A DNA stretch of 64,000 nucleotides from Schmidtea nova (taxonomy: Eukaryota). Shown here piece by piece: positions 808 through 31,403 of the stretch (positions are counted from its first letter, which is position 1; the number at the start of each line of letters is the position of its first letter). A program made the position numbers and the translations under genes. The stretch lies in assembly GCA_044892505.1 (NCBI GenBank), contig CM097882.1:293632001-293696000 (forward strand), in the 5' to 3' direction. The notes below the pieces were generated by a model. That model worked only from the letters and a program-made list of their open reading frames with translations. It had not been told where the DNA came from and made no database searches.

Positions 808-1866
808 CAAGGATTCGGAGCGGAGCGGAGCCCGGAGCCCTGTGCGGCTCCGGAGCGGATAATTTGCTTGGAGTAAAGAGCGGAGCAGTGAGTAAAAAAA
901 TTAGAAGGAGCGGAGCGGTTCCGCTCCGCGGTTCCGTTCCGCTCCACATTTTTTTAAAATTTCTTTTCGAAAACGAATGTAGTGTCAGTTTTGGAAAATT
1001 AGTGTAAGTTTTGTTATTTAGGTATCAATTCAAAATTTTTCTTGCCGGGAAAATGAAAAGTTTGCATGTTGGGTCCAAGGTATATAGATTGTTGGGATCT
1101 AAGTTTGTGTTGATGTGTCAAATAACAGCTAATTATAATCTGAAAATTTAAATGTTTTGATTTATATATATTTTGTTTAATTCAGTTTGAGAATTTTAAA
1201 TTATTTACTGTTTGTCTTTTTAAATAATAATATCCTTGGGTAAGTAAGTTTATCATTATCCTCTTGATATTTAGTTTCATTATTCTTCACTTTTCTTTAT
1301 AGGAAAAATATATGAATAATATAAAACATAAAAGTTATTGATACATATATATTTACATGAATTTATATGTAATGTGTAATGTGAGACACAAAGTTTAAAT
1401 AAATTAAAATTAAGAAGTTAAAATAAAGGTAAATTTAAATTAGTTATTTATTTATACTTTTACTATATTTTCATAAGTTTTTATATTTTGTTGGGCCCGC
1501 CAAATCACCTAAAAACACAATAAAACGAACAAAAGCATGAAACAATAAAGAAATAATAAAAATAAAAATAGCAAGAAAAACAAATTAAAAATAACAATAA
1601 AACGACAAATAATAATTGATAAATTTTCAGTAAAAGGAAATTTTGAAAATAAACCGGTAAACAACCGCAAAAGGGGGCCTGAAATAAGAAAAAATAGAAT
1701 TAAATAAAATAATAGTACAAATAATTAATTAATTACTTGGAAAATCAGGACCACCCAGCGAGAAACCGGAAAAGGAAACAAAATAATGTTTAGATTAGAA
1801 TAAAATAATAAAAATACTTTGATGGACGGCCTGATCCTGATTGGTCAATCCAACCAGACGGATCAG

Positions 1867-1874
1867 TATAAATA
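1867..1874 (+). promoter_or_regulatory. Candidate LTR TATA box (TATAAATA), with a candidate splice donor at 2002 (GAA|GTAATT)
   Basis: The same TATAAATA lies ~400 nt into the A LTR (38890-38897, minus), followed ~100 nt later by AG|GTAAAT (38789). Confidence 0.55.
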
Positions 1875-2995
1875 CCGATCCAAAAATCACAGACAGAGAC
1901 GTTTTACATTTTCACTCACAATCAAGACTAAACTTTGATTTGAGTAATAATTTTTGAAAGAACCGAACTTCATACAAGGAACCACACATTCAAGTACGGA
2001 AGTAATTTTTTTATGTTATCTTATATGATGTACCATGATTTTTATTTAATTAAAAGTTTATATGTAAACGTTATTTTATTTTTTCATTGATTATTTTTAT
2101 TGACACTTTAATGCATATAGCTATACTTCCTATGCTGCTCACGCGGCGAGGGAGTCCGAGTCGTCGTCGTGGGGCCTCAGGGTCTCACATGGCGGTTCAA
2201 CCTTTTTATTGTTTCTGGTTTTCATATTTAATTTGGTAGTTGAAATAATTAAATTACATCATTCAAATTTAACTAGATATTTATCAGCGAGATTAGAGAA
2301 TTTTAATGCTTATTTAGTCGAGTAAAATTTTCAGTCACAGAATATCGATAATGCGAATACGTCCAGACAGTTTTCTGGCGATAAGTAAAAAGTCATCATT
2401 TAGTTGCACAGAGGACGAGTGTCGAGGGCTAAATAGGGAGAGTAGCTGGGTAATGGGAGACACCCCAGGGTAGGGTGTATTCAGCATCATAACGCATAGA
2501 AAAATGAGCCTAATTTGAACCTCCAGCATGGAGAATAATGATAAATAAATAAAACTAATTCATATAATTTCGATAAAATGGAAAATTTCAATGAAGGTTA
2601 AAGTCCGATTTCATTCGGAATTAGTATCTCACCTACAGCGTCACCCGATCGATAAATACCGATCGCATTGGAATGCGACGGAGAATCCACATCAAGTCAT
2701 GAAACTCTAAAAATAGACCGATCGTCGTACATGGCGCGGATATCTAATTTATCTTCCGATCGCTGTATATAGCGCGGAGAATTTTCGAATAAATTTTATA
2801 TTTTCCTTACTGCTGTACATAGCACAGGATTAATTATGAACTCTTTATTCCGACCATGGTAGATCACGGCGGAGAGAAAGAAAATTTACCTTATTATTTT
2901 TAAGTAACTTTTGTGATTATATACAGTATAATTAAATTATCAACGAATTTTCCCCCCTTAACTCAGATATTTTATATCCAATAAATGTAATATAG

Positions 2996-3475
2996 ATGTC
3001 GACAGCTGAACTTATAAATCGATTGACTCAACTACGGAATATGGAACAAGTGAATCTGCGAAATGGAAATATCTCGCAGCTCAAGGATCTACCAGCATCG
3101 ATATTGCGGACCCTCAACTGCCAAATGTATAAGTGGCGACAGGGGTTTGGCCGAAAATGCCCGTTCTCGATATGGACAGGAGGGCACGACCAAATATTCT
3201 ATCGAGGAGGACCGAACTGGCCGATTTCTCAAAGGCCGTACTCGAACAAATTTGGCCGCCTTGTCGTACTGATCAAGGACACCGATGGACGGACAAGCCG
3301 TGTAATTTATTGGGGGCATATCCCTCGTCGGGAACTATGCCAACTAGGCCTACACGAATTCCTGCCACGAAAACCGTTCGGCAAGGAGTGCCAGAAAGGA
3401 CAACCCTCATTCTCTTGGGCTCGTCTCCGTCAGAAACCGATTAACAGCGAACTGCATAGCCTGTTTCGGAGATAA
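2996..3475 (+). CDS. LTR-encoded ORF1, unknown function (159 aa)
   Basis: ATG directly after a TAG acceptor-like site. Segment IKDTDGRTSRVIYWGHIPRRELCQLG aligns with FLDEQNRPRWLLSTGMMSGRALHQLG in the A LTR ORF 37174-37806. Confidence 0.6.
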   Translation: MSTAELINRLTQLRNMEQVNLRNGNISQLKDLPASILRTLNCQMYKWRQGFGRKCPFSIWTGGHDQIFYRGGPNWPISQRPYSNKFGRLVVLIKDTDGRTSRVIYWGHIPRRELCQLGLHEFLPRKPFGKECQKGQPSFSWARLRQKPINSELHSLFRR

Positions 3476-3661
3476 GAACTGATTGTCAAATCTTTAAAAG
3501 TTGTGATTAAATATTAATATTCAGCAGTGTTTTTGTTTTGTTGTTTGGAGTTTTAGTATTGTGTTTTTAATAATTCATATTCGTGACCTAATAATCCTAT
3601 GATCAGATTTTAAATTTCATATAATTAAATCATAGAGTAAATATCCTAAATAAATTATAGA

Positions 3662-4258
3662 ATGAATCCCGATTTGATGCAGAGAGAATTAGAAAAGATG
3701 TGGCGGATTCGGAGGGCCCAGGACAAGGAAGTGGGTCTCCTCAAGGCACAATTGATCAAAGCAGAGGCACAGATTGCATATTTGCGCAAAAGCTGGTTTG
3801 CTCCGGCCCGAATGAAGGAGCAAATCAGTAAAACCGAGCGCGCCCAACAGACTGCAGCCGAGTACCAAATGGAATGGGAGGCTACAAAGATAGAACTCCG
3901 AAAATGCCTCCATTCCGTAACTGCCTCATATATTGAGAGGGAGCTCAGAGAGCAAATCCGTCCAGTTACGTACCAAGCTTGGACATCAGAGAAGAAGACT
4001 TTGAATTCCATTGGTACGGATGTCGCAGATCTAATCGAAAATCGGAATGAGACAGCTCCTGCAGTAAATTCAACCACCTCATCGGTAAATGCGCACCAGA
4101 AACGCAAGCGCATTGGGCAGAAACGGCGGAGACAGAGAAAATTATTTGCCCAGCAATTACAAAGCCAAGTCGATGGTCTACATCAGATGACTGAGGAGGC
4201 ATTATTGACAGAGATTTTTCCTCCGGCGGGAGTTTTTACCGAACTCATTAAAAATTAA
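3662..4258 (+). CDS. LTR-encoded ORF2, coiled-coil plus basic NLS-like motif (198 aa)
   Basis: Homologous to A LTR ORF 36422-36985 (WFAPARMK/WFNPERVK; KRKRIGQKRRRQR/KRRNRLGAKKRRERR). Confidence 0.75.
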   Translation: MNPDLMQRELEKMWRIRRAQDKEVGLLKAQLIKAEAQIAYLRKSWFAPARMKEQISKTERAQQTAAEYQMEWEATKIELRKCLHSVTASYIERELREQIRPVTYQAWTSEKKTLNSIGTDVADLIENRNETAPAVNSTTSSVNAHQKRKRIGQKRRRQRKLFAQQLQSQVDGLHQMTEEALLTEIFPPAGVFTELIKN

Positions 4259-4498
4259 ATAAATTGTTGTATTGGCTTAAGAATTTTATCGTTCATTTAA
4301 ATTGATTTAATTAGCTTTACCAATGATTAGGTAAAGATAGAACAAAAGTATAAATTCATTTTACAAAATATCGAATAGAGATAATTAAATAATTAAGCGA
4401 GCATTCGTTGAAACACTTCTCGCAGACTGAGCAATAATAAAATTAAATTTTCTGAAAGATTAACGCGGAATACATAAGTAGATGATTAAAGCATAAGT

Positions 4499-4640
4499 CC
4501 TTCTAACGGCAGCGATGAACCCGTGAACATAAATGGGGAGTAGTACTAGCGATAGTGCTCACCTGCCCATCATTGTTCAACCACCCTGCGCATCACCAAC
4601 TTGATTATATAGGGAAATAATCAAGGGCGCTTGAGTGTAG
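4499..4640 (+). other. Conserved structured RNA element near the LTR 3' end (U5-like)
   Basis: Blocks CCTTCTA(A/T)CGG, G(A/G)ACCC and GCTCAC, a GNRA hairpin and an AA-bulged hairpin with a TAGGGA loop recur with compensatory changes at 36127-36257(-) and 55565-55697(-), and partly at 55331-55460(+). Confidence 0.65.
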
Positions 4641-4732
4641 AATTGCAATTTTATGCATGATCATGGATGGGGGATCCCTAGTCATTGTTAGAGCATTTTT
4701 CATCTAACCCCTCCATGAACCCAGCATAAATT

Positions 4733-6240: not shown

Positions 6241-6293
6241 TTGAGGCCAATGAGCCTTATTGAATGACCTAGCTAGGCGTTATGGAGAGATTA

Positions 6294-6630: not shown

Positions 6631-7245
6631 CCATAGTGAATTATAGAGATATCCGGATAAATAGTAACAGGGGGAATATAGACCCATAGTGTAATCGTCG
6701 ACGAGATTTAGAGTAGTGCGCACTAGTAGTTAAGAGAATGCGAGTAAAGCTGATTATGCAACCTTAAGTAAAGCATGCAAGGAGAATAGTAAAAATTTGG
6801 GCTGACCGGAGCAACCGGCAGAATGAGTAAAACGATTGCTAACAGGGAATAATGAGTAGAGATGATAAAATAATGATAAACGAGTCAGAAAGACTCAGGG
6901 AATTAGAGCGCTCGAGCGACCAATAATTTGGGAAACTGTGGGAAAAGTAATCGATTTGATAAAACATAGATAATTATTACGACGTAAATAGATAATTGTG
7001 ACCAGTCTATAGATAATTTAAATAGACTAAAAATAAAGGGGAATCTGGGAATTGGGAGATAATGAAAACCCAGTAATAAGTAATCCCGAAAGAAAGGGAA
7101 TAAAAGCGCGACGATAACAATAATGTATCGTTGAGGACCTTTGTATTTTAGATATACAAATCAATCAAAGCAATCAATCAAACAAGAAGAATCAGAACAC
7201 GATAATAGATAGGACAAGAAAATTGATAATATAAAAGTAATCCAG

Positions 7246-10200
7246 TTGAGAAAAGGAGCAAAGAGTGTCGTAATAAAGCCAACGGAAAAGAAAGTCGGTA
7301 GCAACATTAACAAAAAAGACAAAACTAGTACTACAACAAAAAAGCAGAAAGCCGGCAAAGATAACCCACAAGGGAGTAAAGCGAGAAAAATAATAAGAGA
7401 TAAATCGATTATCGAAAACGATAAATTGTCAGTAGTAAGCAACAGTTCAAGTAACAAAGAAAACCAAGCAGAACCCAAAGAGAGCCAAACAAGTGAAATA
7501 GAAGTAGACGAAACTAATAACGATAATATAGAAGAATTAGAGAGTGAGGTAGAACAAGAAGTAGAAATCAACGAGAGCGATAACGATAGTATAATATCAG
7601 ATCACGAAGTAATAAGAGAAACAGAAAGTGATTCAAGCTCGAGTGGAACAGAAGACGAACATAACAACGAGTTAGAAACAAGAGGAAACGAAAGTAAAAT
7701 AACTCAAGACAGCGGAATCGAAATGAGCGAACCAAGAGAAGAAATAAAGGATAAATTTTCGGGAGAACCGTTTAACGGAGATGCGAGTAAATTAGAAATT
7801 TTTCTCAAGGAATTTGGCATATTCGTGGAAGTATGCAAATGGAAAGCTGAGACAACAGCAAGTAGAATACAGTTATATTTGAAAGAATGCGCATTGGACC
7901 TATATTTGGAAGCAAAAAACGGTACCAATCCACCTGCAGACTGGCCAGCGATAAAGGACTTTTTCCAACAAACATTTGGAATAAATAGAGTGCTGAGCGA
8001 AGCATTCATAGAATTTTCAATGAGAAAACAAAAGATGAATGAATCTAACGCGGTATACGCGAGCGAATTGAAAAAATTAGCAAAATCGGTATTCAAGGAT
8101 GGGAGTCCAATAAACGAGGAATTAATGGCAGCTATCTTCATAGGAGGATTAAGAAGACCCGACATAAGAGCGCAAGTAGGATGCCAAGGATGCAAAACCA
8201 TAGATCAAGCGTTAGAAACAGCTAACCGATTTGAATTGCATATGATAGGAAGCGAAGGCAGAATTTATTTAGCCATGGACACAGCACAAACCGAACCAGA
8301 AGTGAATCTCAACAATCACATTCCAAATTCGCAACAATTAAACCGACCACCCCCTCAACGAAGGAATGAAGGAAATAAAGTGCAGAACTTTGAAAATCAA
8401 AACAATTACAACCCTCAAAGACAAACAAAACAATGTAAAACATGCGGGAAGTTGGGACACTGGCAGCAAGAATGCTATCAAAATTTGAATTGCGGAAAAT
8501 GTGGAGTCAAAGGACACTCGGAAAGCAGATGTTCTACAATAATCTGTTTTAATTGCGGACGACCTGGTCACTATTCAAGAAATTGCGGACAAAAAAGTAA
8601 TCAACGAGGAAACTGGCAGAGTAATGGGAACCGACCAAATTACGGAAATCAAGCAAATACCGTAAACCGACCAGATTATGGGAACCAACAAGTCAATAAT
8701 AACAATAATCAGAACAAAACCACCCCCAAAGAAATACATTTAATGCAAGAAGTCCAAAGATTGACGGAACTTATAAACAATACGACGAGAGGAAATCCGC
8801 AAACCAATCAACAGCAAATTAGCATGATGAGAAAAATAGAAAGCGAAAACGAACGATTGAATCGAGAAAGTCAAGCACGACACGCTCAGGAATGGGCAAG
8901 AATACAAAGAGAGGATGAGCAAAAACAGCAAGAAAGAGAACGACAACCTCTAAGAATTAACATGCTAAGAGCAACAAACCAAACAGACACTCGCGAGAAA
9001 GAAACCACACTGGAAATGAATTCGATAGACCCAAATCCAGCCGACAACGAAAGTCGAAAAGAGATAGTACAAAAAGATGAAGAAGTAGAAAAAGAAACAA
9101 AAAAGGAAGTGGAAACCGAGATAAACCAGGAAGGGGGAAAGGAGATTTGGAAAAAAGGAATGATGGTAATCATGCCCAACGACCATATGTTTCGATTCCA
9201 ATATAACGCAAAAGAAAAGGTGGAAATACTGTTCAATAAAGTAAACCAGATGATTCCAGGAGTGACAAAACTGCCCAGAGAAGCGTTCTTACAAATAGGA
9301 GATGCACCATCAGTAAAATTGAAATTAACGGATATATGGGAAAACGTGGGAGTAACAGAGACAAAAAGAAATGTGATGAGAATTAAAGAAATAGAACCAG
9401 AAGAAATTCCACCACCAATACGTCACGAAACCCGAATCCGGCGAATATTTGAAGGAAAAATGATAAGAAGACGTTTAAAAGAGATAGACGAGTTGGGAAA
9501 GAAAATGGAAAAAGTCGAAGTAATAGAGGACAAGAGTGAACCAACACAAGAAATTGACAAAAACGAACCAGAACCAACGGAGAATATACAAGGAGAAACG
9601 AACCAAACAGCACATATTAATATGTTAAGAAATACCACCAGAGAGTTCTCCGATGAAGAAGAAGACAGTGACATCAGTAGCCTAGCAGGAGACATATTAA
9701 ATGAATCCGAAGACGAAAATAAAGAGAGAGAAGTAATAAAGACCTCAGAACCTACACAGATAAAAGTAGATGAAATCCAGAAATTACTAGATAACTCACT
9801 AGAAGTAATATATAACGAAGAGTTCATGGACAAGAAACAATATCGGAAATTCATGAAAGCATTACTGCAAATGAACTACAAAGAATGGTTACAAGACCGG
9901 GAAGTAGACATGTTAAATCGATACGTAGGGAAATTAATAGAGGAACCACTTCTCAATTACACCATCTCAATAATAATAAATACATCAACACCAAGAATCT
10001 GGATCAAAACTCCATTCACAGATGATATCTACAGATGGGTAGAGGATAGACTAGGGAGCTCATATAAAAACAAATTCATCTATTCGCAGAATAGACTCGT
10101 AAAGAAAAGAACGCACTTAGTAGAAACAGGTATATGGCCAGGAGAAATAACTTTGTTATCAATATGTGATGAAAAGGAAGAAGAGAACCTACAAGAAGTT

Positions 10201-13200
10201 GCAAGGGAAGCAAACACGTGCTTCGAAAGGAGAATAAAACCTCGGTTAGAATACGAAAAAGAACGAGTCTTACGAAAGAATCTAAATTTCCTGATAGAAC
10301 AAATCATACCACAAGTCAAAAAACATAGAAAAGAATTAATGAGAAGCGAATACGAGAAATTGAAACGATGTATTGAGTGCATACGTGACACAAGCCACAC
10401 GAGATGGTCACAGATCTCACACGACAAATTAATCGCAAAAATGGGAAAAACAATGTTCAGGCAAGGGAAAATAACAGATCTAAAAATTTCAGTAGAATTA
10501 CCTAATGAGGACACCAAAGAAATTGAAGTGGTAGCGGATTGCACCATTAAAGAATTAATAAATGTCATCAACGAGACACTAGTGCAAAGAGAACCAGAAG
10601 ACGAATGGGAAGACGACATAATCATACAATACAACGAACACGTATTATGGGATCACGATGAGAGACGATTATATAAAATCGGTATATGGGATAATCACCA
10701 AACAATCCACGTTAGCAGAATGGACGATACACCCAGAGAAACTGCTAAAGATGAGAAAAGAGAACGGGAACGACGGAAAGAAGTTGTGCGTAAATTACAA
10801 CAAATAGTAGAAATTTATCGAAATTGGCGAATTTGGCCAGAGTGGGAAAATGTATTAGAACAACTCAACCTCAACAGACGAATACGAACACCCGTAGAGA
10901 AACAATGGAACGAGAAAGGAAAATGTTGGGAACCAAAAGAAGGGGAATATGAAGAAGAATATAAAAGAGGAATTGAAGATGACTGCGAACCAGAGATAGG
11001 AAGAGTTTGCATGGTAACAAGGAAAGCTACGCCAATAGACCTAGATGGACCAGAAACAGCGGCCATGTGGTTAGAAAGGGAAAAGCAAAAAACGGAAGAA
11101 TTTGTCGAAATATTAAAAACCAATGAGCACGGTAAGAGAAAATTAATAAAAGGCCTCGCAGATTTTTTCGTGGTAAATGGGGAAGATATAACATGCTTGC
11201 GTAAAGTAGCAAAAGCAATCGCGGAATATAAAAGAGTTAACGAGTGGTGTCCAGAACAACTAGACCACGTAATTAGGAAATGGAGAAATCAAGAATTCTC
11301 GCAAGAAATTCCACAGAAAGTACATTTAAGAATAATATATCCAAACAAGGATAAGGAAGAGCTTTGGGTAGGAATAGCAGAAAAAATTCGAGATATTAAA
11401 AAGAAATTGAGATACGAACCACCATTCCATTTACAACACCAAGGACGATCATTAGATAACAGTTTGGAAATCGGAATAACGCCAGCACAATTAGACCTCA
11501 TGAATACCTTGACAGTAGAAGCAATAGCGGGTCAACCATTGAAACGTAAAGAAGAAAACCATAAACCACACGGAAGTATAAGTACGCCAAGCCCGATGAA
11601 ATCAGTACTAACACCAGGGACAAGTTCAAGACGATCTGAGACAACACCCAGAGGAACCAGAGAAAGGACTCCACCACAACCATACGACGTGGACGAAATT
11701 TTAACGGATAGCGACGATATGATAGAAGAGTTAACCGAATTAACAAGGGAAAAGGACGATAACATTTTCGAAAGAATACAAGAACTACCTACGACAATAC
11801 AAGTAACCAACACCGGAGAAGCAGAAGTCGAAGAAGAAATAATAATAGAAGAAGTAAACGATCTAACAGAAGACGAAACGAGAGGAGCGAATGTCGAAAA
11901 TGTACAATTAACACAAGAAATGGAAAGATGGTTAGAAGAAAGAGCTAACGAACCAAGAGATGTCACCGAAGAAACCGGACGAGCAACAAGGTTTGTGGAA
12001 ATAGGTACAGGAATGGATAAACGACCTCGAGGTAGACCCAAGACAGACCCAGCAACAGTAGTTATCAGAAATAAGGACGAAAAGAGACAAGATCAATGGG
12101 AATTATGTTTAAAGAAATTAAACAAAATCGCAGAGATGAAAGAAAAAGAGACAACACCAATATGTCAAGGGGAGGAATGGATATCGAAAACAATAATGGA
12201 ACTATTGGCAATAATTGATCCGGAATTAAGAAAATACTGGCGTATAACGGAGATAAGCGAAAAGGCGAAGTCACTACACAGCGCAATCGCACCCATCTTA
12301 CCGGAATTCATAAAAGAGAAGACGAAATCAAATCACTTAGACTGGCAAGGAACCACTATGTTAATAAAGAAACTGACAGAAGGAGCGGAAACAGATAACA
12401 AATACGTAATAGCTATTGCATACACGATCTACAATCTGTTGACACTGAGTAGAGGTCGACCAAAACCCACTGCATTAGAGAGACATATAAAAAATACCGC
12501 AAAAATTATAGCGAGAGAAATAGAACCATACGTCATTAACAAAGGAGGATGGGAAACATTTATAAAAACTAACCAGAAGAAAACACAAGCCAAGAATATG
12601 AAAAAGAAATTCGAAAAAATATTGGAAGAGTTAGGAAAAGAACAAGCAGGAACAGGAAACGCAAAGTCATCAATGAATCTGAGTGCTATAATAATGATGA
12701 TGTTGATTTGGATGATTAGCACCGATAGCGCAACAGCATTCGAAGTGTTTGATTGCGACCAAATGAAGTTAGGAGAAAAGTATTCATTGAGAGGTACGGA
12801 GCAATGCAAAGATGCGACTCCAGTAGAGTTGCAAAAGATTAAAAAAGAACAATGGTACCACGTGTATCAAGAAGCAGAACTCATAAAGACAATGGTGAAT
12901 GAATGTAAAGTGCAGAAGACGAGATTCGCATTCTACTGCGGGAGAGGACATTATTCAGCAATTGTCATGCCAGGAACGGAAAGAGAACCAATCGTGTTAC
13001 AAGGAGAAGACTGCGAAGCACTGTTTAAACATGGAGAAGTAACAACAAGAGATAAAATCAAGATAAGAGGAAAGCCAGGAATGATGATGCAACAGACGTA
13101 CTATGTAGCAGGACGGATTACGGGAGGAGAAGGATATTGTCAAGGAGAAACCTACCCGATATTCGGAGTACCCGCAACCAACCTAGTAGTAATGGATACG

Positions 13201-16200
13201 TATATAGTCGAATTAAAAAGCTATGAAGCATTCTTCGAACCAACAACGGGAGAAATGAAAACGTTATCCATGTGTAAAATCGACAGGAGCATGTGTCAAA
13301 CGGGAATGTCAACATTGGTATACAAACCAAAGGTGAACGAATGTCAATTACAACTGCTACAAGGAGCACAGTTCGACGAAATCCAAGGAAAAACGTTTCA
13401 GGAAGAAGACGACGACGACAAAGCTAGAGCAAAGCATCTCAAGGAAGCTTTAGAGAATAAAAGACAACTGAAACCAGATCATAGAGAAAAACGAATAGAG
13501 ATGAGAGCCACACCAACAGTATTGATAACCACAAATCAAGATGTGGGAATGAGGTTCATAAAAGGAAAAGCAACCCTCAAGTGTAGTACAACGGTATACG
13601 AAACAAATTACCCAGGAATATATGTGTCAAAACAAGAAGTGCCAAACGCGAAACCCAAAATCGACACAATGGATATCAAACTACACCTATATGTGAATAA
13701 TAAAATGGATTTCCTATTCCATAGAGGACAAGCCTCATTACAAAAAGTGTACTACGATCTGATAAACAATGATTGTATACTGAATCGAGAAATATTAAAG
13801 ACGAAGTTGGCCGTAGCGATTACGAATCCAGATAGCGCGATGCCATTATTACCACTGAGAGAAGGACATTTCGGAAGAGTGGTCGGAGAAGCAATGTACG
13901 TATACATTTGCGAAAAAACACACGCGTCGCTAGCAGCAACAACACAGTTGAAACCTGGAACCTGTACAAATGAGTTGGAAATCGATTACAAAGGAAAAGT
14001 ACGATACGTTCAACCGGTGACGAGAATCATCAATCCACCAGGGTTTGAACCAAATCCATTCAACTGTAGTAATGCGTACGGACCGCTCTATCAGAAACCA
14101 GATGGTAAATGGGTTATGTTCCCAGGAAGATCCGAAGTGATAGCACCAAGAGAATTCGAGCTAATGCAATTGTCAAAGGATAGGCAATTCAGCGACGTAG
14201 ATGTCTCAAACAACGGAATATATAGTCCAAAGGATCTAGAAGCAGCAAGGCAGAATATATTATTCCCGGCAAGAAGAGAAGCATTACTGTCAAATATCGT
14301 AACGATAACGGGAGGAACGAATTATCAAGAAGGACCGAATTATGAACTGTTATTGTCACCAGCACATTTCAAGAAAGCCACAGAAAATATGATGAAAGCA
14401 ATGTGGGGAAGATTTCTGATATTCGGACAAATGATGGCTGGAATACTGGGGGTTATATTAATAATACAAATCGTCAGAGTGATAATAACGCAAATGTTAG
14501 CGTGTTTTGACATCTACAAGAGAGAAAAGAAAGTGAATTGGAAAATGGTAGTAGGGTTTTTACCATTCCTCGCGAAGACGATGGTGTTGCACGGACACTC
14601 AAAGGACATACATCGAATAAAGAGATTGTTGAAGATACTCGCAAAAATGAAGGGAACAGATGAAGAAGTAGGACGAAAATTTAAAAAGATAATGGATGAC
14701 GAACAAGCAAGACAACAGCTCAAGAGAGAAAGAAAAGGTTTATGGGAGAGGATGAAAGGATATAAAACCCAAAATGATTCGAGTGACGACGACGATGACG
14801 ATGACGACTATAAGGGAGGACAAGTGTATAAGAACCAAGCACCACAATACATCGAAAAGAATCCAGCCGACGCATGGAAATGTTACGCACCTCCACCAAC
14901 CATGTATCAAGAACCACTACAAGGAGGAAAAAATAGCACGATGCAAATGATGCCAATGACAAATGTATACCCCATGATACCAGAAGATTATAAAATGAGA
15001 AGATGTAGAAGCGTAGATCCACAAGGAGATACACACACGATCGCAGTAATGTCATCAAACACAGGTCCAGTGTTAACCACGACAATAGAAATTAACGGAA
15101 GAGAAATCGAAGCAATGATCGACACGGGAGCAAACATTTCCGCCATCGACATCAAATGGATACCACAAGAGCAAAGACGAGAAATAGAAAGGACAAACGT
15201 CCACGTAATTGCATGTAGCAAAGAAGTTGTAGAAGTAGCAGGAAGATGGTGGGTAAAAATACGCCACCTAAACACGGAAATCGATACATACGTAGCAGTT
15301 ATACCAGCATTAAGCGTACCTTGCATTATCGGAACAGATTTGATGCCAGCATTATTTAAAGAGATTGTAATCGACCTCGGAACAATGAGACTAAAGGATC
15401 GCACAGGACAAATATGCGCAATAGAAGCCAAAGTGACAAGTTCAAAGCAAATGATAATACCCGCAAGAAAGGAAAAAATATGTTACGTAAAAATAGATCC
15501 GACAATCCAAGGGGATATGATTTTCGAACCAAGTAAGAGATTCGAGAAAAGAAAAGCGTTGCCAATGGCAAGAGGACTAGTTAACATAAACGATGATGGA
15601 GAAATCCCAATAAACGTAGTAAACTTCGATGAAGAGGACAAAATAATATACGAAAACGAAAGATTAGGTAAATTAACCCCAATGATGGATATCGAACTAC
15701 CAATAGAAGGGGCAGAGAAAGATAAAGAACCAACCTGGAATATTGATAGTGAATTATTAAATGAGGATCAAAGGAAGCAGCTAGAAAAACTCCTGATAGA
15801 GTATAAGGATATATTTGCAGCATCCGATTTAGATCTAGGAACATGTGATGTCACACTACATACAATACCATTAACAGATGAAACACCAATTGCATTAAGG
15901 CCGTACAAATTAGCGGAAGCACAGAAAGCAGTAGCAGAAGCAGAAGTGAAGAAAATGTTGGATGCAGAAGTAATCGAACCAAGTTGTTCACCCTGGCAAT
16001 TTCCAGTGGTAATGGTAAAGAAAAAAGACGGAACACAGAGATTCTGCATAGACTATCGAAGATTGAATACAGTGACAAAAAGGGATACTTACCCATTACC
16101 AGACATTAATGAAATGCTATTAACATTACAAGGAGCAGCATATTTTACGTCGTTAGATCTGAAAAGCGGATATTGGCAAATAAAAATGAAGGAAGAAGAT

Positions 16201-19200
16201 AAGGAGAAAACTGCCTTTACCATCGGTAGAGACCTATATCAATTTCGAAAGATGCCATTTGGATTAACGAACGCACCAGCATCATTTCAGAGATGCATGA
16301 ATTTCGTCACCCACGGAATAAAGCAGTGCATGGTCTACATCGACGACTTATTGATTTACTCTAGTACATTCGAACAACACATACAGGATATTCGAGATGT
16401 ATTCGTTAGGCTTAGACAATGGAAGTTAAAACTCAAGCCATCAAAATGCGATTGGGCGAAAGAGAAAGTAACATTTTTAGGACATATAGTGTCAGCAAAA
16501 GGAAAAGAACCGGATCCTAGAAATATCGACAAAGTAAAGGAATGTCCAGTACCAAAAACAATAACCCAGATACAAGAATTTCTTGGACTATGTGGATATT
16601 ATAGAAAGTTTATAAAAGATTACGCCGGAATAGCAAAACCTATACAGGAACTAGTAAAGAAAGATGTATCCTTCATATGGGGAGATGAACAACAAACAGC
16701 ATTCGAGACATTAAGAGATAAACTGATAACCGCACCCATATTGGTACACCCAGACTTTAAGAAGCCATTCCTACTTGCAACGGATGCAAGTGGATATGCA
16801 GCAGGAGCAGTATTAGGGCAATACGATGATGAAGGAAAAGAACGCGTAATCGGATATTATAGCCGGACATTCAAAAAGCATGAGAAAAATTACTCAGTAA
16901 CAGAACGGGAAGCATTAGCAATTATATTAGCTATTAAACACTTTAAATATTTACTATGGGGTCACATCATCTGCATAACAACAGATCACCAACCGCTTGT
17001 ATGGTTAGGACAGCACAAGGAAACATCCAGTAGATTAATGCGATGGGCAATGCAGTTACAGGAGTACTCACCAGACATAAAATTTAAATCAGGACGAGCG
17101 AATGCGAATGCAGATTGTATGTCAAGACTGACATTTCCAGAACTAACCGATCCTGATGTACAACGAATTTGTGTATTAATAGCGGAGGATCTAGATTTTA
17201 GCGAGCTTAAGAAAGATCAACAAGAAGACAAAGAATTGGGACAGATCATAGAGTTCCTAACGTCTCGAAATATGGAGGTATTTAAGGATAATAAGGAATT
17301 AAAGGAACATATAGGAAAATATCAACATCGCTACATAATAAATAAAGGATGGTTATTAATACAAGACGGGGAAAAGAGATTGATGTGTTTACCGGAAAAC
17401 AGAAGGAAAGAGATAATGATCCAATACCATGATGGGAAATTGGGAGGTCATATGTCCGAGAAAAAGACCATAAACCGTATGAGACAAAAATATTATTGGC
17501 GAACAATGGAAGAAGATATAAAGGAATGGATTAAAAATTGTCTAACTTGCGCAACCAGAAAGGATAGTGGGAAGAAATGGAAGAACCCGCTACAACCAAT
17601 GCCGATACCAGCAGAGCCAATGACAACTATAGCAATGGACGTAATAGGACCATTACCAGAAAGTTTAAACGGAAATATTTATATATTGGTGATAACGGAT
17701 TATCTGACAAAATTCCCGGAAGCATTTGCCATGCAAGACCAAAAAGCAAAAACCGTAGCAAAGATTCTAGTAGAAGACATATGTTGCAGATACGGAACTC
17801 CAAAACAAATACTCACAGACCAAGGAACTAATTTTATGAGCGAGTTATTGAACGAGGTGACAAACTATTTCCGAATAGCAAAATTGAGAACTTCACCATA
17901 TCACCCGCAAACGAATGGACAAACGGAGCGATTCAACGGCACATTGATTAGAATGTTATCAAACTACGTCAGCAGACACCAAACTGACTGGGATGAATAC
18001 ATAAAATTATGTTTAATGGCATACCGAATGTCGATACATGCAGCAACAAAACTAAGCCCATTTCAACTTATGTATGGAAGAGAATGCAACATGCCCATAG
18101 ATTTAGAGTATCAGCCACCATTATCGCAATATATGGAAGATGACGACTACGTAACCAAATTCAAGGAAAGGATGCAGGAAATATGGAAAACGGCAGAACT
18201 CAACATTAAATTTTATCAGGAAAGTTATAAGGATTTACACGACCAGAAGAAAAATGTTAAAGCGAACGATCTAAAACCAGGAGATTGGGTGATAATAGAA
18301 ACTCCCGAAATAATACCCGGAACTGTTAAGAAACTCCAAAGACCTGGAAGAGGACCTTATGAAATTATATACAAGAAGGACAATAATGTCAAAGTTAAGC
18401 TAATAAATCGACCGTTAATACGACCCATATATGTAAACACCTGCAGATGTAAGAAGGTGCCTAAAACGATAACTACAACACCAGAAAATCGAATAATAAC
18501 TAGATCACAAACAGCCAGGATAAATATGCTCAGAGCTAACGCAACTAAAGGCGACAAAGCAGAAATAAGACAAAAGGAAATCAGAAATAAAGAAATCATA
18601 TTGAAGGCGAGAGAGATAATGGGAAGATGGCATGTTAGAGACGAAGCAGGCATATCAAGGGATATTAGACATATAATTAGCCGTTACGCACAAGGATTAC
18701 CAACCGAACCAATTATTTCTGAATTATTGGAAAAAATCCCTGAAATACTCTTATTGAAAGATGTAGGAGGACAACCAGCCTTACATAATGCGATAGAGTG
18801 TAAAAACATTGAAAGAGCAAAAGAATTCCTAAAAATCGCAAAAGAAACAAATCAAAACTTGGACGTAGGGAATCGGAAACAAGAAACTCCATTAATGACA
18901 GCCGCAATCCACCAAGCAGATAAAGAAATGATAGACCTATTGATAAAAGCTCATTTCAGTTGGACAGAACGAGATAGAGAGGACAAAACAGTGCTAAATC
19001 ACGTAATATGGAGTTCTCACCAACCAATGCTGAAATACATAATAGCTAACTCCACTTGGGAGATAGACGAACTAGTTAAAGGAGACATTATCAAAGAGGC
19101 AATCAAAATTGGTAAATGCAACACGATCCGTAAGTTAATCAAATGGAAACGACCAGAAGATGATACATGGGTCTTAGACATAAACGAAGTATACAGCGAA

Positions 19201-22200
19201 GGACAAAACGCACTGTTAAGATACCTTTTGAAATTTACTTGTGATCAAAAGACATTACTAACCTTATTAGACAGAGGAAACATAAACATCACAAAGAATG
19301 AAGAAGAATACAAATTCGATAAAGAGAAGGAAGCCTTATTCAATAAGATTAGGAAATGGTGTGCGAAACCACTTGATAAACTAATAACATACAAAGACAT
19401 AAGCAATTTTAACGAGAAATACCAGACGATAGTAAGCGAATATGAGGAATTAGTAAAAATCTTAAACCATCCCGAAAAATGCAAACAGGTTTTAGAGAAA
19501 AAAGAAAGAGAAAGTAACAAGAAACTCACACCACTCTTCAAAGCAGAAGCACCATACCAAGCTAGACTAGATGCGATACAAGAAAAAGCAAAAGAATTGT
19601 TACCGGAATTCGAGAATAGTAAACATGCACTGGAAATACTCGGCGCATTAGTTGAAAAAGTACACGCATACGCAAAAGGAACATACAATGGTAACGACAT
19701 AGTAATAATAAAAAAGGAGATGCCAGTAACATTCCTATTACCAAAAGACGGAATAATGCCCATACATAGAGCTCTACGAAATGGCAAAGATAGGAAAGTA
19801 ATGGAAATTGCAAGAGTAATGCTAAATTGCGGAAGCAATATGAATATGATAGACGAGAAAGGAGATACACTTATGGTATTTGCAGCAAGGGCCAAAACGA
19901 AAACAAAGGTATTAGAAGAACTATACAAAGCAGGTGCAGGACTTACAGGAAAGACAGATAAAGATAATTCGATATTGGATGTAGCATTATTAACACACAA
20001 TTGGGAAATGGTCAATTTCATTAAAACCGTCCCAAATCAGGAAGAAATAGATCACCTAACTGATACGGTCAAGAAACCCAGTGTACTAGCAATGATGAAC
20101 AACGTCGAACTAACAGAATCAATACTTACGTGGATAAATCCTAATACTAACGAACCAGCATTCAGGATTAATAAGTTTACAGAACATAACCAAAACTGGT
20201 GTATAAGAAGTGCCTTAATAACGTATAAATGGCCAGAGATATTGAAGATGTTTATGGAAAGAAAGGATCTAAGAATCACAACCAGCCCGAAAGAAGAAAA
20301 ATACACAGGCAAATGGAAAGAATTGATGAAGACATACATCAACAATTGGATCAAGGCCAAAAAGGAAATCTTGGAACATAAATCCACTAACAAAGTAATA
20401 CCGGAGCAGGTAGAAACACAAGAATTTGAGGCAAGTAATCTAACGACATTAGCGTATGCGAAACTAATAGAAGAAATCAATGTCGAGGACGACATTTTCG
20501 ACGAGCCAGGGGGAGATGACAACACAGATAGTGACGACGATAACAACTCAGAAAATTCAAGCGATCACGAACCACCCGATAAAGAGGATAACGAGAGAAA
20601 AGACAAGAAACGAGACAAAGAAGAAAAGAAAAATGAAGACGAAAAACAAAAAGATGAAGATGGAGAACAAGGAAAAAACGACCAAGGAAATAAAAATGAC
20701 ACCCAAAGAACAGGGTATAAGTCAACCATAAAACCATTCTTCAAACCAGAATTACTATTACTAACAATGATTATAACGTTAATTAATCCAAGTCAGGGAA
20801 TGACATGTGAAGAAAGGGCAATAATACAAATAAAAAACGCGAAAGGAATCGAACGAGTATGTTGGTCGAAAAAGGACAAAACTACGGAACAAAATAGCCC
20901 GATGGATTGCAGAATCTCAAAACACGAGCAAGAGATCATAGAGATCAACGACCTAGATCTAGATACCTGGTACAAAATATGCACCGTTAGGAAACAAAAG
21001 CATCCAAGATCACACAACACAATCGCATGTGCAAAATACCAAACACCTAAAGCAGCCATGACAATACAACAGTCACCCAAAGGAGATTACATCATCGGAA
21101 AATGTGGAAGAACAGAGACACAGGGAACAGAAAACAAAAAACCCCAGGCAATAGATAAGCAAACAACACCAACCCTACGAATTACAATAGAGAGGCCCGA
21201 AACAAGAATTGCCACAAACGAAACCGAAAGAGTGTCTTACCAAATGGAAGTATTATGCTTAGCACTCATACTAATAATGATAAAACGATTAAAGGAAGGA
21301 ATAGAAATTGAAACTATGACAATAACAGAAGTAGAAGATACACAGAATACTAACATAAAATGTTGGGCGAGGAATAACGAGGAAATCGGCGTAAATGAAA
21401 TAAGGAAAAGTCGAAAACCAACAACGAATAAAGTAATTAAAGTATCCAAAGTAAAAGCAGATAAGACGTACAAACTATGCCTACTAGAAAAAGAGACAAA
21501 CAAGAAAGGTACCACAAAATGTAAAACATTTCAACCCGGAGAAGTAATAAAGTTCAGAAGGAGAACGAGGAAGAGAAATAAACAAATCAAGCGGAAAGTA
21601 AACATAACATTAGAAATAAAAGAGATAGAACCAAATGTGAAAGGAGTATGCTGGAGGAAGTACGAAAAGGAAACAAATAAAAGAACGACACCACAATGTC
21701 AAACAAGCACAGGAGCAACAACGATACAAATAAAAGGTCTAGAAAGTAAACAAACCTACGAAATATGTTTGGTAAAGAAAAATGATCAGATAACGATAAA
21801 CGACCTAGAATGCGGAATACATACAACTTCATCCGGAACAAGAACCAAAACGTTAACACGGAAAAATAAAAGGAAACAACGAAACAAAGAAAAACCGAAG
21901 TACACCACTACCTTTAAAAACAATAAACAACCAATAAGCCAGGAAGCTACGACAAAACCCGAGGGAAAGACATCAGCAACTCTAACATTATGGAAAATAG
22001 AGAATAAAACATTAGAAATATGTTGGATAATAGTTCAGAAACATATAAGAAGACAATCAAGAGAGTGCAGAAAAACAAATAAAGAAATCAAGATCGAAAA
22101 ACTACAATTTAATAGCGAGTATGAAGTATGTACAATAGAAAAAACGGACGCACTAGGAAACCAACAAGAAAGATGCGAAACCTACTATACACCAGCGAAC

Positions 22201-24671: not shown

Positions 24672-24763
24672 ATAAATAAAGCGGAAAATTGTAAATATGT
24701 AAAAATAAAAACAAGAAAAACCAAAAATAAATGACAAGTCGAATGTATATATTATTGTAGAAA

Positions 24764-26140
24764 ATGGACAGAGAAGAACGAATAATCGAAATTTTGAGAC
24801 TAGAAAACAGAAAATGGAGTAAGAGGCTCACATGCGGGAAGTGTAACAATTTATTACGAGAACCCAGACAAACGATATGTGGATGTAGAATATGTACAAA
24901 ATGTATACAAGAATTGGATGCAACAGGAATAACAACATGCCCAGAATGTAAAGAAGGAGGAATAGTGTTGGACGAAACCAGAACGGACAAAGCAACCCAA
25001 AGAGAAATTATGAGCACCACAACGGAGTGCGTAAATACACCTTGTACATGGCAAGGACAAATAAGTAATCTGGAAAACCATATGGAAAAATGCGAGGAAA
25101 AGAGAGCCGAATGCGAGAAATGCCAACAGACAATAACTCTAAAGAAGAGAGAACAACACAAGGAAGAATGTAAAGAAGAAGAAATCGCATGCGAGTATTG
25201 TGAAGCCCGAGAAACAAGGAGAAAAATCGAAGAAGAACACTTGAATATAACAGAGGAGAAAGTATGCGGACAATATGTAAGTAAATGTCCAAACAATTGT
25301 GAAATAACAGAAGAAATAAAATTACATGAACATTGGAAACTATGTACCGAAAGGCCAAGAGAATGCCCATATAACAAGCATGGATGCAAGGAAAAGCGGA
25401 CGCGAAAAACAATGCAACAACATCTAGAAGAAGCAGCACTAACGCATGTGGAAATGACAAACGAAACGACTAAAGAAACGGAACGGACAATTCAGAAATT
25501 AGAAAAAGAAGTAGAATCACATAAAATAATGATGAGTTTACTACTAGAAACAAGAGAGCAGTTTGAACTAACTCGCGAAAGAATGGAAAAGAAAATAATA
25601 GCCATAGAAGAATTAGGAAAAGGAATGAAAATACAATATAATCAATTAATACGAGAAATTGACGAAAGAATGGACTTACCAATCGCACCTTACCTATGGA
25701 AAGTAACAGATTTCAGAGACAAATTAGCAGAAGCCAGAAATATGACGAAAACAGCAGTAATAAGCCCACCATTTTATTTATGGAAAAACGGGGTTAAAAT
25801 AAGATTGAAAGTATACCCAAATGGAGACGGAAGAGGACAAGGAACACACGTGTCAATATTCTTCTCACTATGTAAAGGAGAATACGATGACCTAATAGAA
25901 TGGCCCTTGAAAATAGGAGTCATTATAAGAATCAAAAGTACGGGAGAACCAGTAGAAAAGTTCTTTGAAACAGACAAACATTCGAGTACGAGCGAAAAGC
26001 CAACGACAGAATGCGGACTAGCAGCAGGAGAACCAATGTTTATAAGGAAAGAAAACCTATGGGAGCAACTATATGCAGACACGCTATACATAGAGATGGA
26101 GAGGCATGAGAAAGCAGACAGAAAAGGATGGTTGGCGTAA
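24764..26140 (+). CDS. Full-length intronless TRAF-family protein (RING, TRAF zinc fingers, coiled coil, MATH)
   Basis: CGKCNNLLREPRQTICGCRICTKC..CPEC; CPYNKHGC..MQQHLEE; YLWKVTDF..SPPFY..LKVYPNGDGRGQGTHVSIFFSLCKGEYDDLIEWP. Confidence 0.95.
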   Translation: MDREERIIEILRLENRKWSKRLTCGKCNNLLREPRQTICGCRICTKCIQELDATGITTCPECKEGGIVLDETRTDKATQREIMSTTTECVNTPCTWQGQISNLENHMEKCEEKRAECEKCQQTITLKKREQHKEECKEEEIACEYCEARETRRKIEEEHLNITEEKVCGQYVSKCPNNCEITEEIKLHEHWKLCTERPRECPYNKHGCKEKRTRKTMQQHLEEAALTHVEMTNETTKETERTIQKLEKEVESHKIMMSLLLETREQFELTRERMEKKIIAIEELGKGMKIQYNQLIREIDERMDLPIAPYLWKVTDFRDKLAEARNMTKTAVISPPFYLWKNGVKIRLKVYPNGDGRGQGTHVSIFFSLCKGEYDDLIEWPLKIGVIIRIKSTGEPVEKFFETDKHSSTSEKPTTECGLAAGEPMFIRKENLWEQLYADTLYIEMERHEKADRKGWLA

Positions 26141-28164: not shown

Positions 28165-31100
28165 TGTTGGGCCCGCCAAATCACCTAAAAACACAATAAA
28201 ACGAACAAAAGCATGAAACAATAAAGAAATAATAAAAATAAAAATAGCAAGAAAAACAAATTAAAAATAACAATAAAACGACAAATAATAATTGATAAAT
28301 TTTCAGTAAAAGGAAATTTTGAAAATAAACCGGTAAACAACCGCAAAAGGGGGCCTGAAATAAGAAAAAATAGAATTAAATAAAATAATAGTACAAATAA
28401 TTAATTAATTACTTGGAAAATCAGGACCACCCAGCGAGAAACCGGAAAAGGAAACAAAATAATGTTTAGATTAGAATAAAATAATAAAAATACTTTGATG
28501 GACGGCCTGATCCTGATTGGTCAATCCAACCAGACGGATCAGTATAAATACCGATCCAAAAATCACAGACAGAGACGTTTTACATTTTCACTCACAATCA
28601 AGACTAAACTTTGATTTGAGTAATAATTTTTGAAAGAACCGAACTTCATACAAGGAACCACACATTCAAGTACGGAAGTAATTTTTTTATGTTATCTTAT
28701 ATGATGTACCCATGATTTTTATTTAATTAAAAGTTTATATGTAAACGTTATTTTATTTTTTCATTGATTATTTTTATTGACACTTTAATGCATATAGCTA
28801 TACTTCCTATGCTGCTCACGCGGCGAGGGAGTCCGAGTCGTCGTCGTGGGGCCTCAGGGTCTCACATGGCGGTTCAACCTTTTTATTGTTTCTGGTTTTC
28901 ATATTTAATTTGGTAGTTGAAATAATTAAATTACATCATTCAAATTTAACTAGATATTTATCAGCGAGATTAGAGAATTTTAATGCTTATTTAGTCGAGT
29001 AAAATTTTCAGTCACAGAATATCGATAATGCGAATACGTCCAGACAGTTTTCTGGCGATAAGTAAAAAGTCATCATTTAGTTGCACAGAGGACGAGTGTC
29101 GAGGGCTAAATAGGGAGAGTAGCTGGGTAATGGGAGACACCCCAGGGTAGGGTGTATTCAGCATCATAACGCATAGAAAAATGAGCCTAATTTGAACCTC
29201 CAGCATGGAGAATAATGATAAATAAATAAAACTAATTCATATAATTTCGATAAAATGGAAAATTTCAATGAAGGTTAAAGTCCGATTTCATTCGGAATTA
29301 GTATCTCACCTACAGCGTCACCCGATCGATAAATACCGATCGCATTGGAATGCGACGGAGAATCCACATCAAGTCATGAAACTCTAAAAATAGACCGATC
29401 GTCGTACATGGCGCGGATATCTAATTTATCTTCCGATCGCTGTATATAGCGCGGAGAATTTTCGAATAAATTTTATATTTTCCTGACTGCTGTACATAGC
29501 ACAGGATTAATTATGAACTCTTTATTCCGACCATGGTAGATCACGGCGGAGAGAAAGAAAATTTACCTTATTATTTTTAAGTAACTTTTGTGATTATATA
29601 CAGTATAATTAAATTATCAACGAATTTTCCCCCCTTAACTCAGATATTTTATATCCAATAAATGTAATATAGATGTCGACAGCTGAACTTATAAATCGAT
29701 TGACTCAACTACGGAATATGGAACAAGTGAATCTGCGAAATGGAAATATCTCGCAGCTCAAGGATCTACCAGCATCGATATTGCGGACCCTCAACTGCCA
29801 AATGTATAAGTGGCGACAGGGGTTTGGCCGAAAATGCCCGTTCTCGATATGGACAGGAGGGCACGACCAAATATTCTATCGAGGAGGACCGAACTGGCCG
29901 ATTTCTCAAAGGCCGTACTCGAACAAATTTGGCCGCCTTGTCGTACTGATCAAGGACACCGATGGACGGACAAGCCGTGTAATTTATTGGGGGCATATCC
30001 CTCGTCGGGAACTATGCCAACTAGGCCTACACGAATTCCTGCCACGAAAACCGTTCGGCAAGGAGTGCCAGAAAGGACAACCCTCATTCTCTTGGGCTCG
30101 TCTCCGTCAGAAACCGATTAACAGCGAACTGCATAGCCTGTTTCGGAGATAAGAACTGATTGTCAAATCTTTAAAAGTTGTGATTAAATATTAATATTCA
30201 GCAGTGTTTTTGTTTTGTTGTTTGGAGTTTTAGTATTGTGTTTTTAATAATTCATATTCGTGACCTAATAATCCTATGATCAGATTTTAAATTTCATATA
30301 ATTAAATCATAGAGTAAATATCCTAAATAAATTATAGAATGAATCCCGATTTGATGCAGAGAGAATTAGAAAAGATGTGGCGGATTCGGAGGGCCCAGGA
30401 CAAGGAAGTGGGTCTCCTCAAGGCACAATTGATCAAAGCAGAGGCACAGATTGCATATTTGCGCAAAAGCTGGTTTGCTCCGGCCCGAATGAAGGAGCAA
30501 ATCAGTAAAACCGAGCGCGCCCAACAGACTGCAGCCGAGTACCAAATGGAATGGGAGGCTACAAAGATAGAACTCCGAAAATGCCTCCATTCCGTAACTG
30601 CCTCATATATTGAGAGGGAGCTCAGAGAGCAAATCCGTCCAGTTACGTACCAAGCTTGGACATCAGAGAAGAAGACTGTGAATTCCATTGGTACGGATGT
30701 CGCAGATCTAATCGAAAATCGGAATGAGACAGCTCCTGCAGTAAATTCAACCACCTCATCGGTAAATGCGCACCAGAAACGCAAGCGCATTGGGCAGAAA
30801 CGGCGGAGACAGAGAAAATTATTTGCCCAGCAATTACAAAGCCAAGTCGATGGTCTACATCAGATGACCGAGGAGGCATTATTGACAGAGATTTTTCCTC
30901 CGGCGGGAGTTTTTACCGAACTCATTAAAAATTAAATAAATTGTTGTATTGGCTTAAGAATTTTATCGTTCATTTAAATTGATTTAATTAGCTTTACCAA
31001 TGATTAGGTAAAGATAGAACAAAAGTATAAATTCATTTTACAAAATATCGAATAGAGATAATTAAATAATTAAGCGAGCATTCGTTGAAACACTTCTCGC

Positions 31101-31403
31101 AGACTGAGCAATAATAAAATTAAATTTTCTGAAAGATTAACGCGGAATACATAAGTAGATGATTAAAGCATAAGTCCTTCTAACGGCAGCGATGAACCCG
31201 TGAACATAAATGGGGAGTAGTACTAGCGATAGTGCTCACCTGCCCATCATTGTTCAACCACCCTGCGCATCACCAACTTGATTATATAGGGAAATAATCA
31301 AGGGCGCTTGAGTGTAGAATTGCAATTTTATGCATGATCATGGATGGGGGATCCCTAGTCATTGTTAGAGCATTTTTCATCTAACCCCTCCATGAACCCA
31401 GCA
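28165..31403 (+). repeat. Element B 3' LTR (3239 bp), containing copies of ORF1 (29673-30152) and ORF2 (30339-30935)
   Basis: Direct repeat of 1489-4726, followed by the ATTT TSD. Confidence 0.97.

Follow-up and report, generated by a model that had tools for sequence, protein, structure and literature searches.

Does a giant retroelement of Schmidtea nova encode a genuine member of the Bcl-2 family, and could the signal sequence of its envelope (env) glycoprotein double as the membrane anchor of that domain? The question arises from a stretch of 64,000 nucleotides, hereafter called the window, in which an earlier note, made from the sequence alone, recognized Bcl-2-like peptides in two elements (here B and C) and proposed that cleavage of the adjoining env signal would leave a tail-anchored anti-apoptotic protein.

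The arrangement itself has precedents. According to the available text of a published account (PMC6431247), planarian Burro elements of more than 30 kb carry a ubiquitin-like domain, a BCL2-like motif, ankyrins and MATH/TRAF domains, together with a mononegavirus-like env located in frame between BCL2 and the protease; the same text credits the BCL2-like motif of Burro-2, -3 and -4 to Grohme et al. 2018 and suggests that Burro elements meddle with apoptosis. We have therefore rejected the idea that the arrangement is categorically new on the basis of this description: a BCL2-like domain before env in Burro-type elements is already published, and the observation is mostly known. What is added here, on the basis of sequence comparison, is evidence that the unrecognizable versions of the domain in B and C are true Bcl-2 homologues, and that nine families share the layout with relatives outside the genome, protein P0008 being the one exception; a predicted membrane topology is proposed as well. 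Element B provides a new and highly diverged instance of an arrangement already described.

Element B and Its Likeness to Burro Elements

Element B lies on the forward strand and measures 29.9 kb in total, including two LTRs of 3.24 kb each (5' LTR, 1489..4726; 3' LTR, 28165..31403). It is a young insertion: the LTRs are 99.88% identical to each other and have TG...CA ends, and a target-site duplication of 4 bp is present. A single frame open from stop to stop (7213..24189; 5,658 aa) encodes the gag-env-pol polyprotein in the order gag, UBL-like, Bcl-2-like, signal, env, TM, PR, RT, RNase H, IN and ankyrin, with further signal/FN3-like/TM modules at the C-terminal end. The better of two stretches of Gag CCHC zinc knuckles is located at 8542..8586 (Pfam zf-CCHC, E = 1.1e-7), about 1,150 residues from the Bcl-2-like domain. 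One of the three candidate stretches ahead of this domain gives a weak ubiquitin-like match (10483..10695; Ubiquitin_4, E = 0.058, below the Pfam cut-off). The Bcl-2-like core, delimited by profile searches and structural alignment, occupies 12169..12564 and is followed by the internal signal sequence of env (12673..12738), which might anchor the Bcl-2-like product at its C-terminus. Next come the ectodomain and transmembrane helix of a Monjiviricetes-type fusion glycoprotein (12739..14487; PF24664, E = 3.2e-72; transmembrane helix at 14431-14487), the protease, RT, RNase H and integrase in gypsy order (15079..17907; Pfam) and ankyrin repeats (18781..19050; Ank_2, E = 8.9e-13). An accessory TRAF-like ORF, with weak RING, zf-TRAF (E = 5e-7) and MATH (MATH_2, E = 6.1e-21) domains, lies downstream and separate from the polyprotein (24761..26140, forward strand).

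These features resemble those published for Burro elements (Burro1/GYPSM1 and Burro-2 to -4), to which B is likened by architecture rather than by comparison with a reference Burro sequence. The shared traits are a size of about 30 kb with LTRs and gypsy order, a very high copy number (the B domain used as query gave 1130 candidates in the 1.25-Gb genome, of which the 150 scored were all 93-100% identical), one huge polyprotein with env in frame between gag and pol directly after the BCL2-like domain, a mononegavirus-type env, the PR-RT-RH-IN series, ankyrins and MATH/TRAF cargo; the weak ubiquitin-like match above is a candidate for a further one. There are also differences, for the TRAF-like gene of B is a separate downstream ORF whereas it has been published inside ORF1 or upstream, the C-terminus of B has the extra signal/FN3-like/TM modules, its Bcl-2 domain has diverged beyond recognition by Pfam, and no BIR domain was found in the ORFs of B scanned with Pfam. 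The interval between PR and RT, where a dUTPase-like domain has been published for Burro, gave no match in a Pfam scan of B. Across the genome there are 1295 BIR candidates, and most of the 150 scored sit in ORFs of about 399 aa.

Sequence Homology to Bcl-2

The BH2-like peptide of B quoted in the earlier note is present in the polyprotein frame at 12514-12564, and both peptides quoted for C were found on the minus strand (BH1-like, 41376-41320; BH2-like, 41232-41191) inside ORF 40942-42345, where they mark the BH1 and BH2 regions of a Bcl-2-like domain at 41140..41607. The env signal and N-terminal env of C (40602..41144, minus strand; PF24664, E = 4.8e-20) are in another frame, this copy being frameshifted or broken between the domain and the signal, whereas relatives such as locus L062 have both in one frame. 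The statement that the domains lie directly before the env signal was thus correct in part: that of B is upstream of the signal but separated from it by a linker of about 40 residues, and that of the C copy stands in a different frame.

Homology of B and C to Bcl-2 rises beyond chance only with profiles, since B alone and the direct comparison of B with C gave no significant match. A Pfam scan of the B domain alone found no family, phmmer against the PDB reached Bcl-xL with an E value of no better than 1.6 (in an alignment that covers BH2), and direct BLASTP between B and C gave a nonsignificant E value of 1.4. We then distinguished nine element families, labeled here B, G, C, D1, D2, E, F, H1 and H2. 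Of the homologue searches made with the domain alone, one retrieved a single fragment of 106 aa (P0004) among 1.84 billion representatives; those for B among longer proteins and for D1 retrieved none. The profile PF00452 matched eight of the 11 proteins tested at E < 0.04, and one of the 11, sibling D1, passed the Pfam cut-off; B, C and F had no match.

A profile built from an alignment of 22 rows (A1), all of them retroelement sequences, matches Bcl-xL with an E value of 1.3e-8 over the BH1-BH2 region, and the 60 matches listed out of 182 are all Bcl-xL or Bcl-2. A leave-out profile made of seven sibling families, with B and G excluded, scores B at 33.8 bits, a value reached by none of 500 shuffles (maximum 7.2), while the reversed sequence scores below 0; along the whole 5,658-aa ORF, the sole positive-scoring match of this profile is to residues 1633-1800. 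The window copy of C likewise scores 39-47 bits against profiles constructed without C, E and F. With a profile derived from 11 host Bcl-2-family exons and no element sequence, the scores are 20.7 bits for B and 13.3 bits for C, neither of which is reached in 1000 shuffles; family F is marginal (7.0 bits, reached by one shuffle of 1000). The behavior of the leave-out and host-only profiles against shuffles led us to reject a reading of the peptides as chance motifs, and the domains of B and C are almost certainly homologues of Bcl-2. The claim that both elements carry a Bcl-2-like domain is borne out by these profiles and by the structural ranking presented below, and its presence in two families has now been extended to nine.

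Predicted Fold and the Upstream Helix

A single-sequence AlphaFold model of the B domain (pLDDT 49) gave no match with Foldseek and was uninformative, and the ESM Atlas returned unrelated clusters with a best feature score of 0.83. The model based on A1 has low confidence (pLDDT 53.5, pTM 0.57); the matches listed in its Foldseek top 50 are all Mcl-1, none of them at E <= 0.001. Exhaustive structural alignment places Bcl-2-family chains at ranks 1-23 of 48,161, with Z scores from 7.4 to 5.3. The best match (Z = 7.4, rmsd 3.7, 127 residues aligned) spans about residues 35-175 of the model; the first unrelated chain has a Z score of 5.2, and a value of 7.4 is within the range that the tool considers common for helical proteins. 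In a library of viral structures, the top two ranks are held by viral Bcl-2 proteins. Of these structural results, the ranking and the Mcl-1 matches point to the Bcl-2 fold; model confidence, Foldseek significance and the single-sequence model lend it no support. The ranking agrees with a helical bundle of alpha1-alpha8 around a central hydrophobic helix, weakly in absolute terms, and these modest scores are valuable for their consistency with the sequence tests.

From the aligned structural range (about 35-175), the helix at 12169-12216 would be alpha1 (BH4-like), and the helix at 12097..12138, which shows a BH3-like pattern, would be an addition upstream of the core. The alpha2/BH3-like helix would lie at 12238-12273, the BH1 region, devoid of NWGR, at 12364-12420 and BH2 at 12514-12564. 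The register of alpha1 and alpha2, deduced from the structural range together with the Pfam matches of siblings, is uncertain, for the upstream helix falls opposite a host BH3 once host rows are aligned with it. This helix (residues 7-30 of the model) lies outside the range aligned to Bcl-2 structures, contains the only invariant column of A1 (Leu22), and is found also in P0005, an outside relative discussed below. Such conservation might suggest that the helix acts in trans as a sensitizer, or that the whole domain is a Bax/Bak-like permeabilizer aiding particle exit. We consider this highly improbable, because neither the acidic residue nor the last hydrophobic position typical of a genuine BH3 is consistently kept, and because pro-survival proteins give the best sequence matches, Bax coming far below them (E = 0.057, for D2).

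Families, Origin and Selection

A search of the genome with the Pfam Bcl-2 model gave 1679 candidates, of which 150 were scored and 30 loci fetched; 16 of the latter have env directly downstream and the other 14, without env, resemble host exons. In all nine element families the helical domain precedes env and is followed first by a linker and then by a hydrophobic stretch; this position is fixed while other cargo differs. Seven of the nine were found through the domain, a related fragment or the Pfam Bcl-2 query, so that the presence of the domain is partly by construction; H1 and H2, which were found through an env search alone, both carry it. Outside the genome, a search with the env region found four proteins, three of which (P0005-P0007) have the same layout, with scores of 45-50 bits, whereas P0008 is without the domain (4.3 bits) but retains env and a similar signal. 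On this sequence evidence, the Bcl-2 domain is dispensable in some relatives.

In a phylogenetic tree, 13 element-type domains lie on one side of a branch and 11 host exons on the other, with support of 92/94; several host rows are partial and long-branched, and loci L042, L056 and L059 were left out. This topology is consistent with a single capture of a host gene, although no donor subfamily stands out in the tree among the 11 host exons. A pattern scan of 18 loci around L035/L037 found no convincing host Bak-like BH3 exon.

For the Bcl-2 domain, the comparison of B with G gives a dN/dS ratio of 0.09, and pN/pS among 44 copies of B is likewise 0.09. Other resolvable pairs of families have dN/dS values of 0.17-0.22, dS being saturated for E-F and C-E. 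The domain is thus maintained as a protein, though no more than neighboring regions: the low ratio is not specific to it, since the upstream acidic linker (0.14) and env (0.05-0.07) also have low values between B and G.

Degenerate BH Motifs and Possible Functions

The motif argument of the earlier note, that BH1 NWGR and BH2 define the fold, is weak as it was put. B has a good BH2 but has lost Asn, Trp and Gly of NWGR, keeping just a basic residue at the Arg position. In C, E and F the BH1 region preserves the Gly and the basic residue (that of C being otherwise lost), and BH2 keeps its first Trp within an altered signature; C lacks the usual BH2 signature. Family D2 is the nearest to canonical sequences and retains most of BH1. 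Lacking the NWGR that characterizes the canonical pro-survival Bcl-2 subfamily, B is not assigned to it. A published account (PMC5691656) indicates that the consequences of such a loss can differ: M11L and F1 are inhibitors of apoptosis that share no significant sequence identity with Bcl-2, mouse Boo, with an altered NWGR motif, binds no pro-death protein, and vaccinia A52, B14 and K7 keep the fold, bind no pro-death proteins and inhibit NF-kB/IRF3.

The domain could accordingly have been repurposed in the manner of A52, B14 and K7, blocking innate immune or stress signaling of the NF-kB/TRAF type rather than apoptosis, possibly jointly with the TRAF-like and ankyrin proteins of the element itself. 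The loss of NWGR despite strong purifying selection and the presence of a TRAF-like ORF and ankyrins within the same element speak in favor of this alternative, as does the precedent of the vaccinia proteins. We nevertheless regard it as unlikely, given that BH2 and the alpha5-alpha6 region of the element domains still have Bcl-xL as their closest sequence match, that sibling D2 retains most of BH1, and that A52 ranks only 28th in the structural alignment, under 24 other Bcl-2-family chains, even if Z differences of less than 1 amount to ties. The likeness to vaccinia A52, B14, K7 and A49, which are not anti-apoptotic, consists in the retention of the fold without NWGR; the element domains differ from them in their BH2 and detectable similarity to Bcl-xL.

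The element domain is also comparable to myxoma M11L, vaccinia F1, KSHV Bcl-2 and ASFV A179L, which likewise combine a host-derived Bcl-2 fold on a mobile element with weak or absent BH motifs, and are among its structural neighbors. These viral proteins are products of stand-alone genes of DNA viruses and have their own anchors, whereas in B the domain, known here from sequence, sits within the polyprotein of a retroelement and has the signal of a glycoprotein at its end. A prediction of the complex between the B core and a host Bok-like BH3 segment (locus L032), in which the alignment was not used, scored 0.02 and is evidence neither way. Taken as a single step, pro-survival function appears to us evenly balanced between yes and no.

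The Env Signal as a Candidate Anchor

With cleavage sites placed by hydropathy and aligned env starts, the BH2-like peptide of B lies 62 residues ahead of the predicted env cleavage site at nt 12739. All 10 representatives have a signal-like stretch before env, with a hydrophobic run of 9-14 residues (11 in B) and a distance of 46-67 residues from BH2 to the cleavage site; a small residue occupies -3 in 10 of 10 and -1 in 9 of 10 (Ala at both positions in B). The stretch looks like the cleavable signal of env itself, and its predicted cleavage is very probable. We rejected its origin as the tail of the captured gene on two grounds, namely its alignment to the beginning of the viral-fusion Pfam model and its occurrence in P0008; since P0008 keeps the same signal without the Bcl-2 domain, env alone explains the conservation of the signal. 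Its best 19-residue mean hydropathy in B is 1.51, as compared with 2.55 for the env transmembrane helix, and there is no basic residue in its last eight positions. With its short length, a hydrophobicity below that of a genuine transmembrane helix and no C-terminal basic residues, the signal of B argues against a canonical tail anchor. Later hydrophobic segments of the polyprotein (residues 4506-4524, 5080-5098 and 5578-5596) would fit an alternating layout of signals and stop-transfer segments. The predicted topology leaves the Bcl-2 domain in the cytosol at the ER, not at mitochondria, ending in the signal with the orientation of a tail anchor.

This geometry has parallels in flavivirus anchored capsid and HCV core, unrelated proteins that are also cytosolic and end in the internal signal of the next glycoprotein within a polytopic polyprotein. 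Their anchor is cleaved further, and such processing is the main rival to lasting anchoring in B. The anchoring segment belongs to env and may be removed again; a lasting anchor derived from the signal could as readily be right as wrong. The tail-anchored anti-apoptotic protein proposed in the earlier note consequently survives in its predicted topology, cytosolic and ending in the env signal, while the loss of NWGR, the weak hydrophobicity of the signal and the existence of a signal without domain in P0008 weigh against it.

A related alternative is that the element protease, or signal peptide peptidase, strips the signal to produce a soluble, perhaps nuclear, effector with the Bcl-2 fold. 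The hydrophobic stretch is indeed short and signal-like, the linker between BH2 and the signal is poorly conserved, and just upstream of the domain there is a basic stretch (12019..12042 in B, labeled by eye) which we take to be AT-hook-like and which has similar counterparts in G, D1, C, E, F and P0005, that is, in six families plus P0005. The motif is however absent from D2, H1 and H2, and the distance from BH2 to the cleavage site, constrained in all 10 representatives, is near that of Bcl-xL, which has roughly 45 residues from BH2 to its C-terminus. We deem this alternative quite improbable. We are similarly doubtful of a purely structural role, in which an uncut Gag-UBL-Bcl-2-signal product would tether Gag to the ER membrane beside env, with the fold serving as a matrix-like spacer for assembly. 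Gag and the domain do share one cytosolic stretch ending in the signal, and the position of the domain is fixed in nine of nine families with other cargo variable; yet in P0008, which has no Bcl-2 domain, the upstream region leads into the same signal, so that a tether would need no such fold, and the distance between the Gag knuckles and the domain is long.

A Putative ER-Side Survival Factor and Its Implications

We propose that a host Bcl-2-family gene was acquired, presumably once, by an ancestor of these giant gypsy elements and was joined in frame to the Gag/ubiquitin-like region on one side and to the env signal on the other. Judging from hydropathy, signals and stop-transfer helices would alternate along the polyprotein and thread it into the ER membrane, and a cut by signal peptidase after the first signal would leave the Bcl-2-fold domain at the ER, facing the cytosol, where the left-over signal would hold it, at least temporarily, oriented as by a tail anchor. 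The protease of the element probably releases the domain from Gag. Like divergent viral Bcl-2 proteins of the M11L/F1 type, the domain may then sequester pro-death Bcl-2-family proteins of the host without NWGR, keeping the host cell alive during expression of the element. As a whole, this account of an ER-side, viral-Bcl-2-like pro-survival factor is our best explanation, held with a little less than even confidence.

A bolder version would be that an entire clade of enveloped retroelements makes a functional death regulator with the Bcl-2 fold, its anchor borrowed from the env signal, such that the synthesis of env deposits a pro-survival protein on the ER; the upstream BH3-like helix would be a lid of the groove removed by processing, and the families would have diversified, losing NWGR in various ways, while tracking host partners. 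We consider this combination fairly unlikely.

The literature searched contains no functional test of the Burro BCL2-like domain, though Grohme et al. 2018 and Lee et al. 2026 may treat it. BURRO1 is under PIWI control according to PMC8532177, and PMC13465017 states, at second hand from Lee et al. 2026, that Burro1 protects stem cells from apoptosis via a captured RING-BIR protein (IAP). Were the domain described here pro-survival, these elements would have a second anti-death module, of the mitochondrial pathway or the ER, besides the reported IAP, a situation that would bear on the tolerance of high-copy elements in regenerating animals. Use of one signal sequence both for env and as the tail anchor of a Bcl-2 protein would be topologically economical, and the nine diverged families offer a natural series on how a Bcl-2 groove may work without NWGR.

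Organization and apparent insertion site of element B

Element B, the 29.9-kb Burro-like LTR retroelement of the window (1489-31403, plus strand), appears to sit within the gag of a related minus-strand element, since both of its flanks (window positions 1-953 and 31735-32451, minus) match the gag of B itself at 71-76% in inverted orientation. Its leader carries a candidate primer-binding site after the 5' LTR (4727-4750), which we take to resemble tRNA-Pro, and 3' of this site lie tandem arrays of 29-bp and 32-bp units (5977-6700).

The end of the B polyprotein (20728-24000) is composed of repeated signal, FN3-like and transmembrane modules, the FN3 matches being weak (E values of 0.024 and 0.69). 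These C-terminal modules may represent captured cell-surface receptor-like cargo. Further along B there is an intronless TRAF-like accessory ORF (24761-26140). Two more reading frames come after it, first one encoding a coiled coil (26224-27315), then a small one with weak matches to membrane proteins (27355-27960).

Related copies and neighboring features

Two loci of the same genome, L122 (1156-2115) and L123 (1722-2681), combine a B-like Bcl-2 region with an env that is only 74-75% identical to that of B, a divergence like that of family G, another of the nine element families. Such copies are possibly inter-family recombinants. The database annotation of P0008, the outside relative having env and signal without the Bcl-2 domain, assigns it to a bacterial MAG as a hypothetical protein; it is nevertheless a retroelement polyprotein of the order env-PR-RT-IN related to B, and we infer that eukaryotic sequence within a bacterial MAG bin likely accounts for it.

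Outside B, a GIY-YIG-containing ORF (39455-40384, minus) lies just downstream of the truncated env frame of element C, which also bears a Bcl-2-like domain, and is possibly a secondary insertion. Elsewhere in the window, coding sequence of the host gene CCT4 (TCP-1 delta) runs for 449 codons with no stop (49056-50405, minus), and a perfect inverted repeat of 160 bp with a 4-nt gap occupies 47807-48130.

Host Bcl-2-family exons and BIR candidates in the genome

Host Bcl-2-family exons are found at L031-L039, L050 and L052, and include two Bok-like and two Bak/Bax-like forms (labels assigned by eye); a small expanded group among host exons of this family comprises L036, L038, L042, L050, L056 and L059. 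BIR candidates number 1295 genome-wide, L179-L184 included, with ORFs mostly of about 399 aa in the 150 that were scored, and the ORFs of this length probably constitute a multicopy, element-borne IAP.
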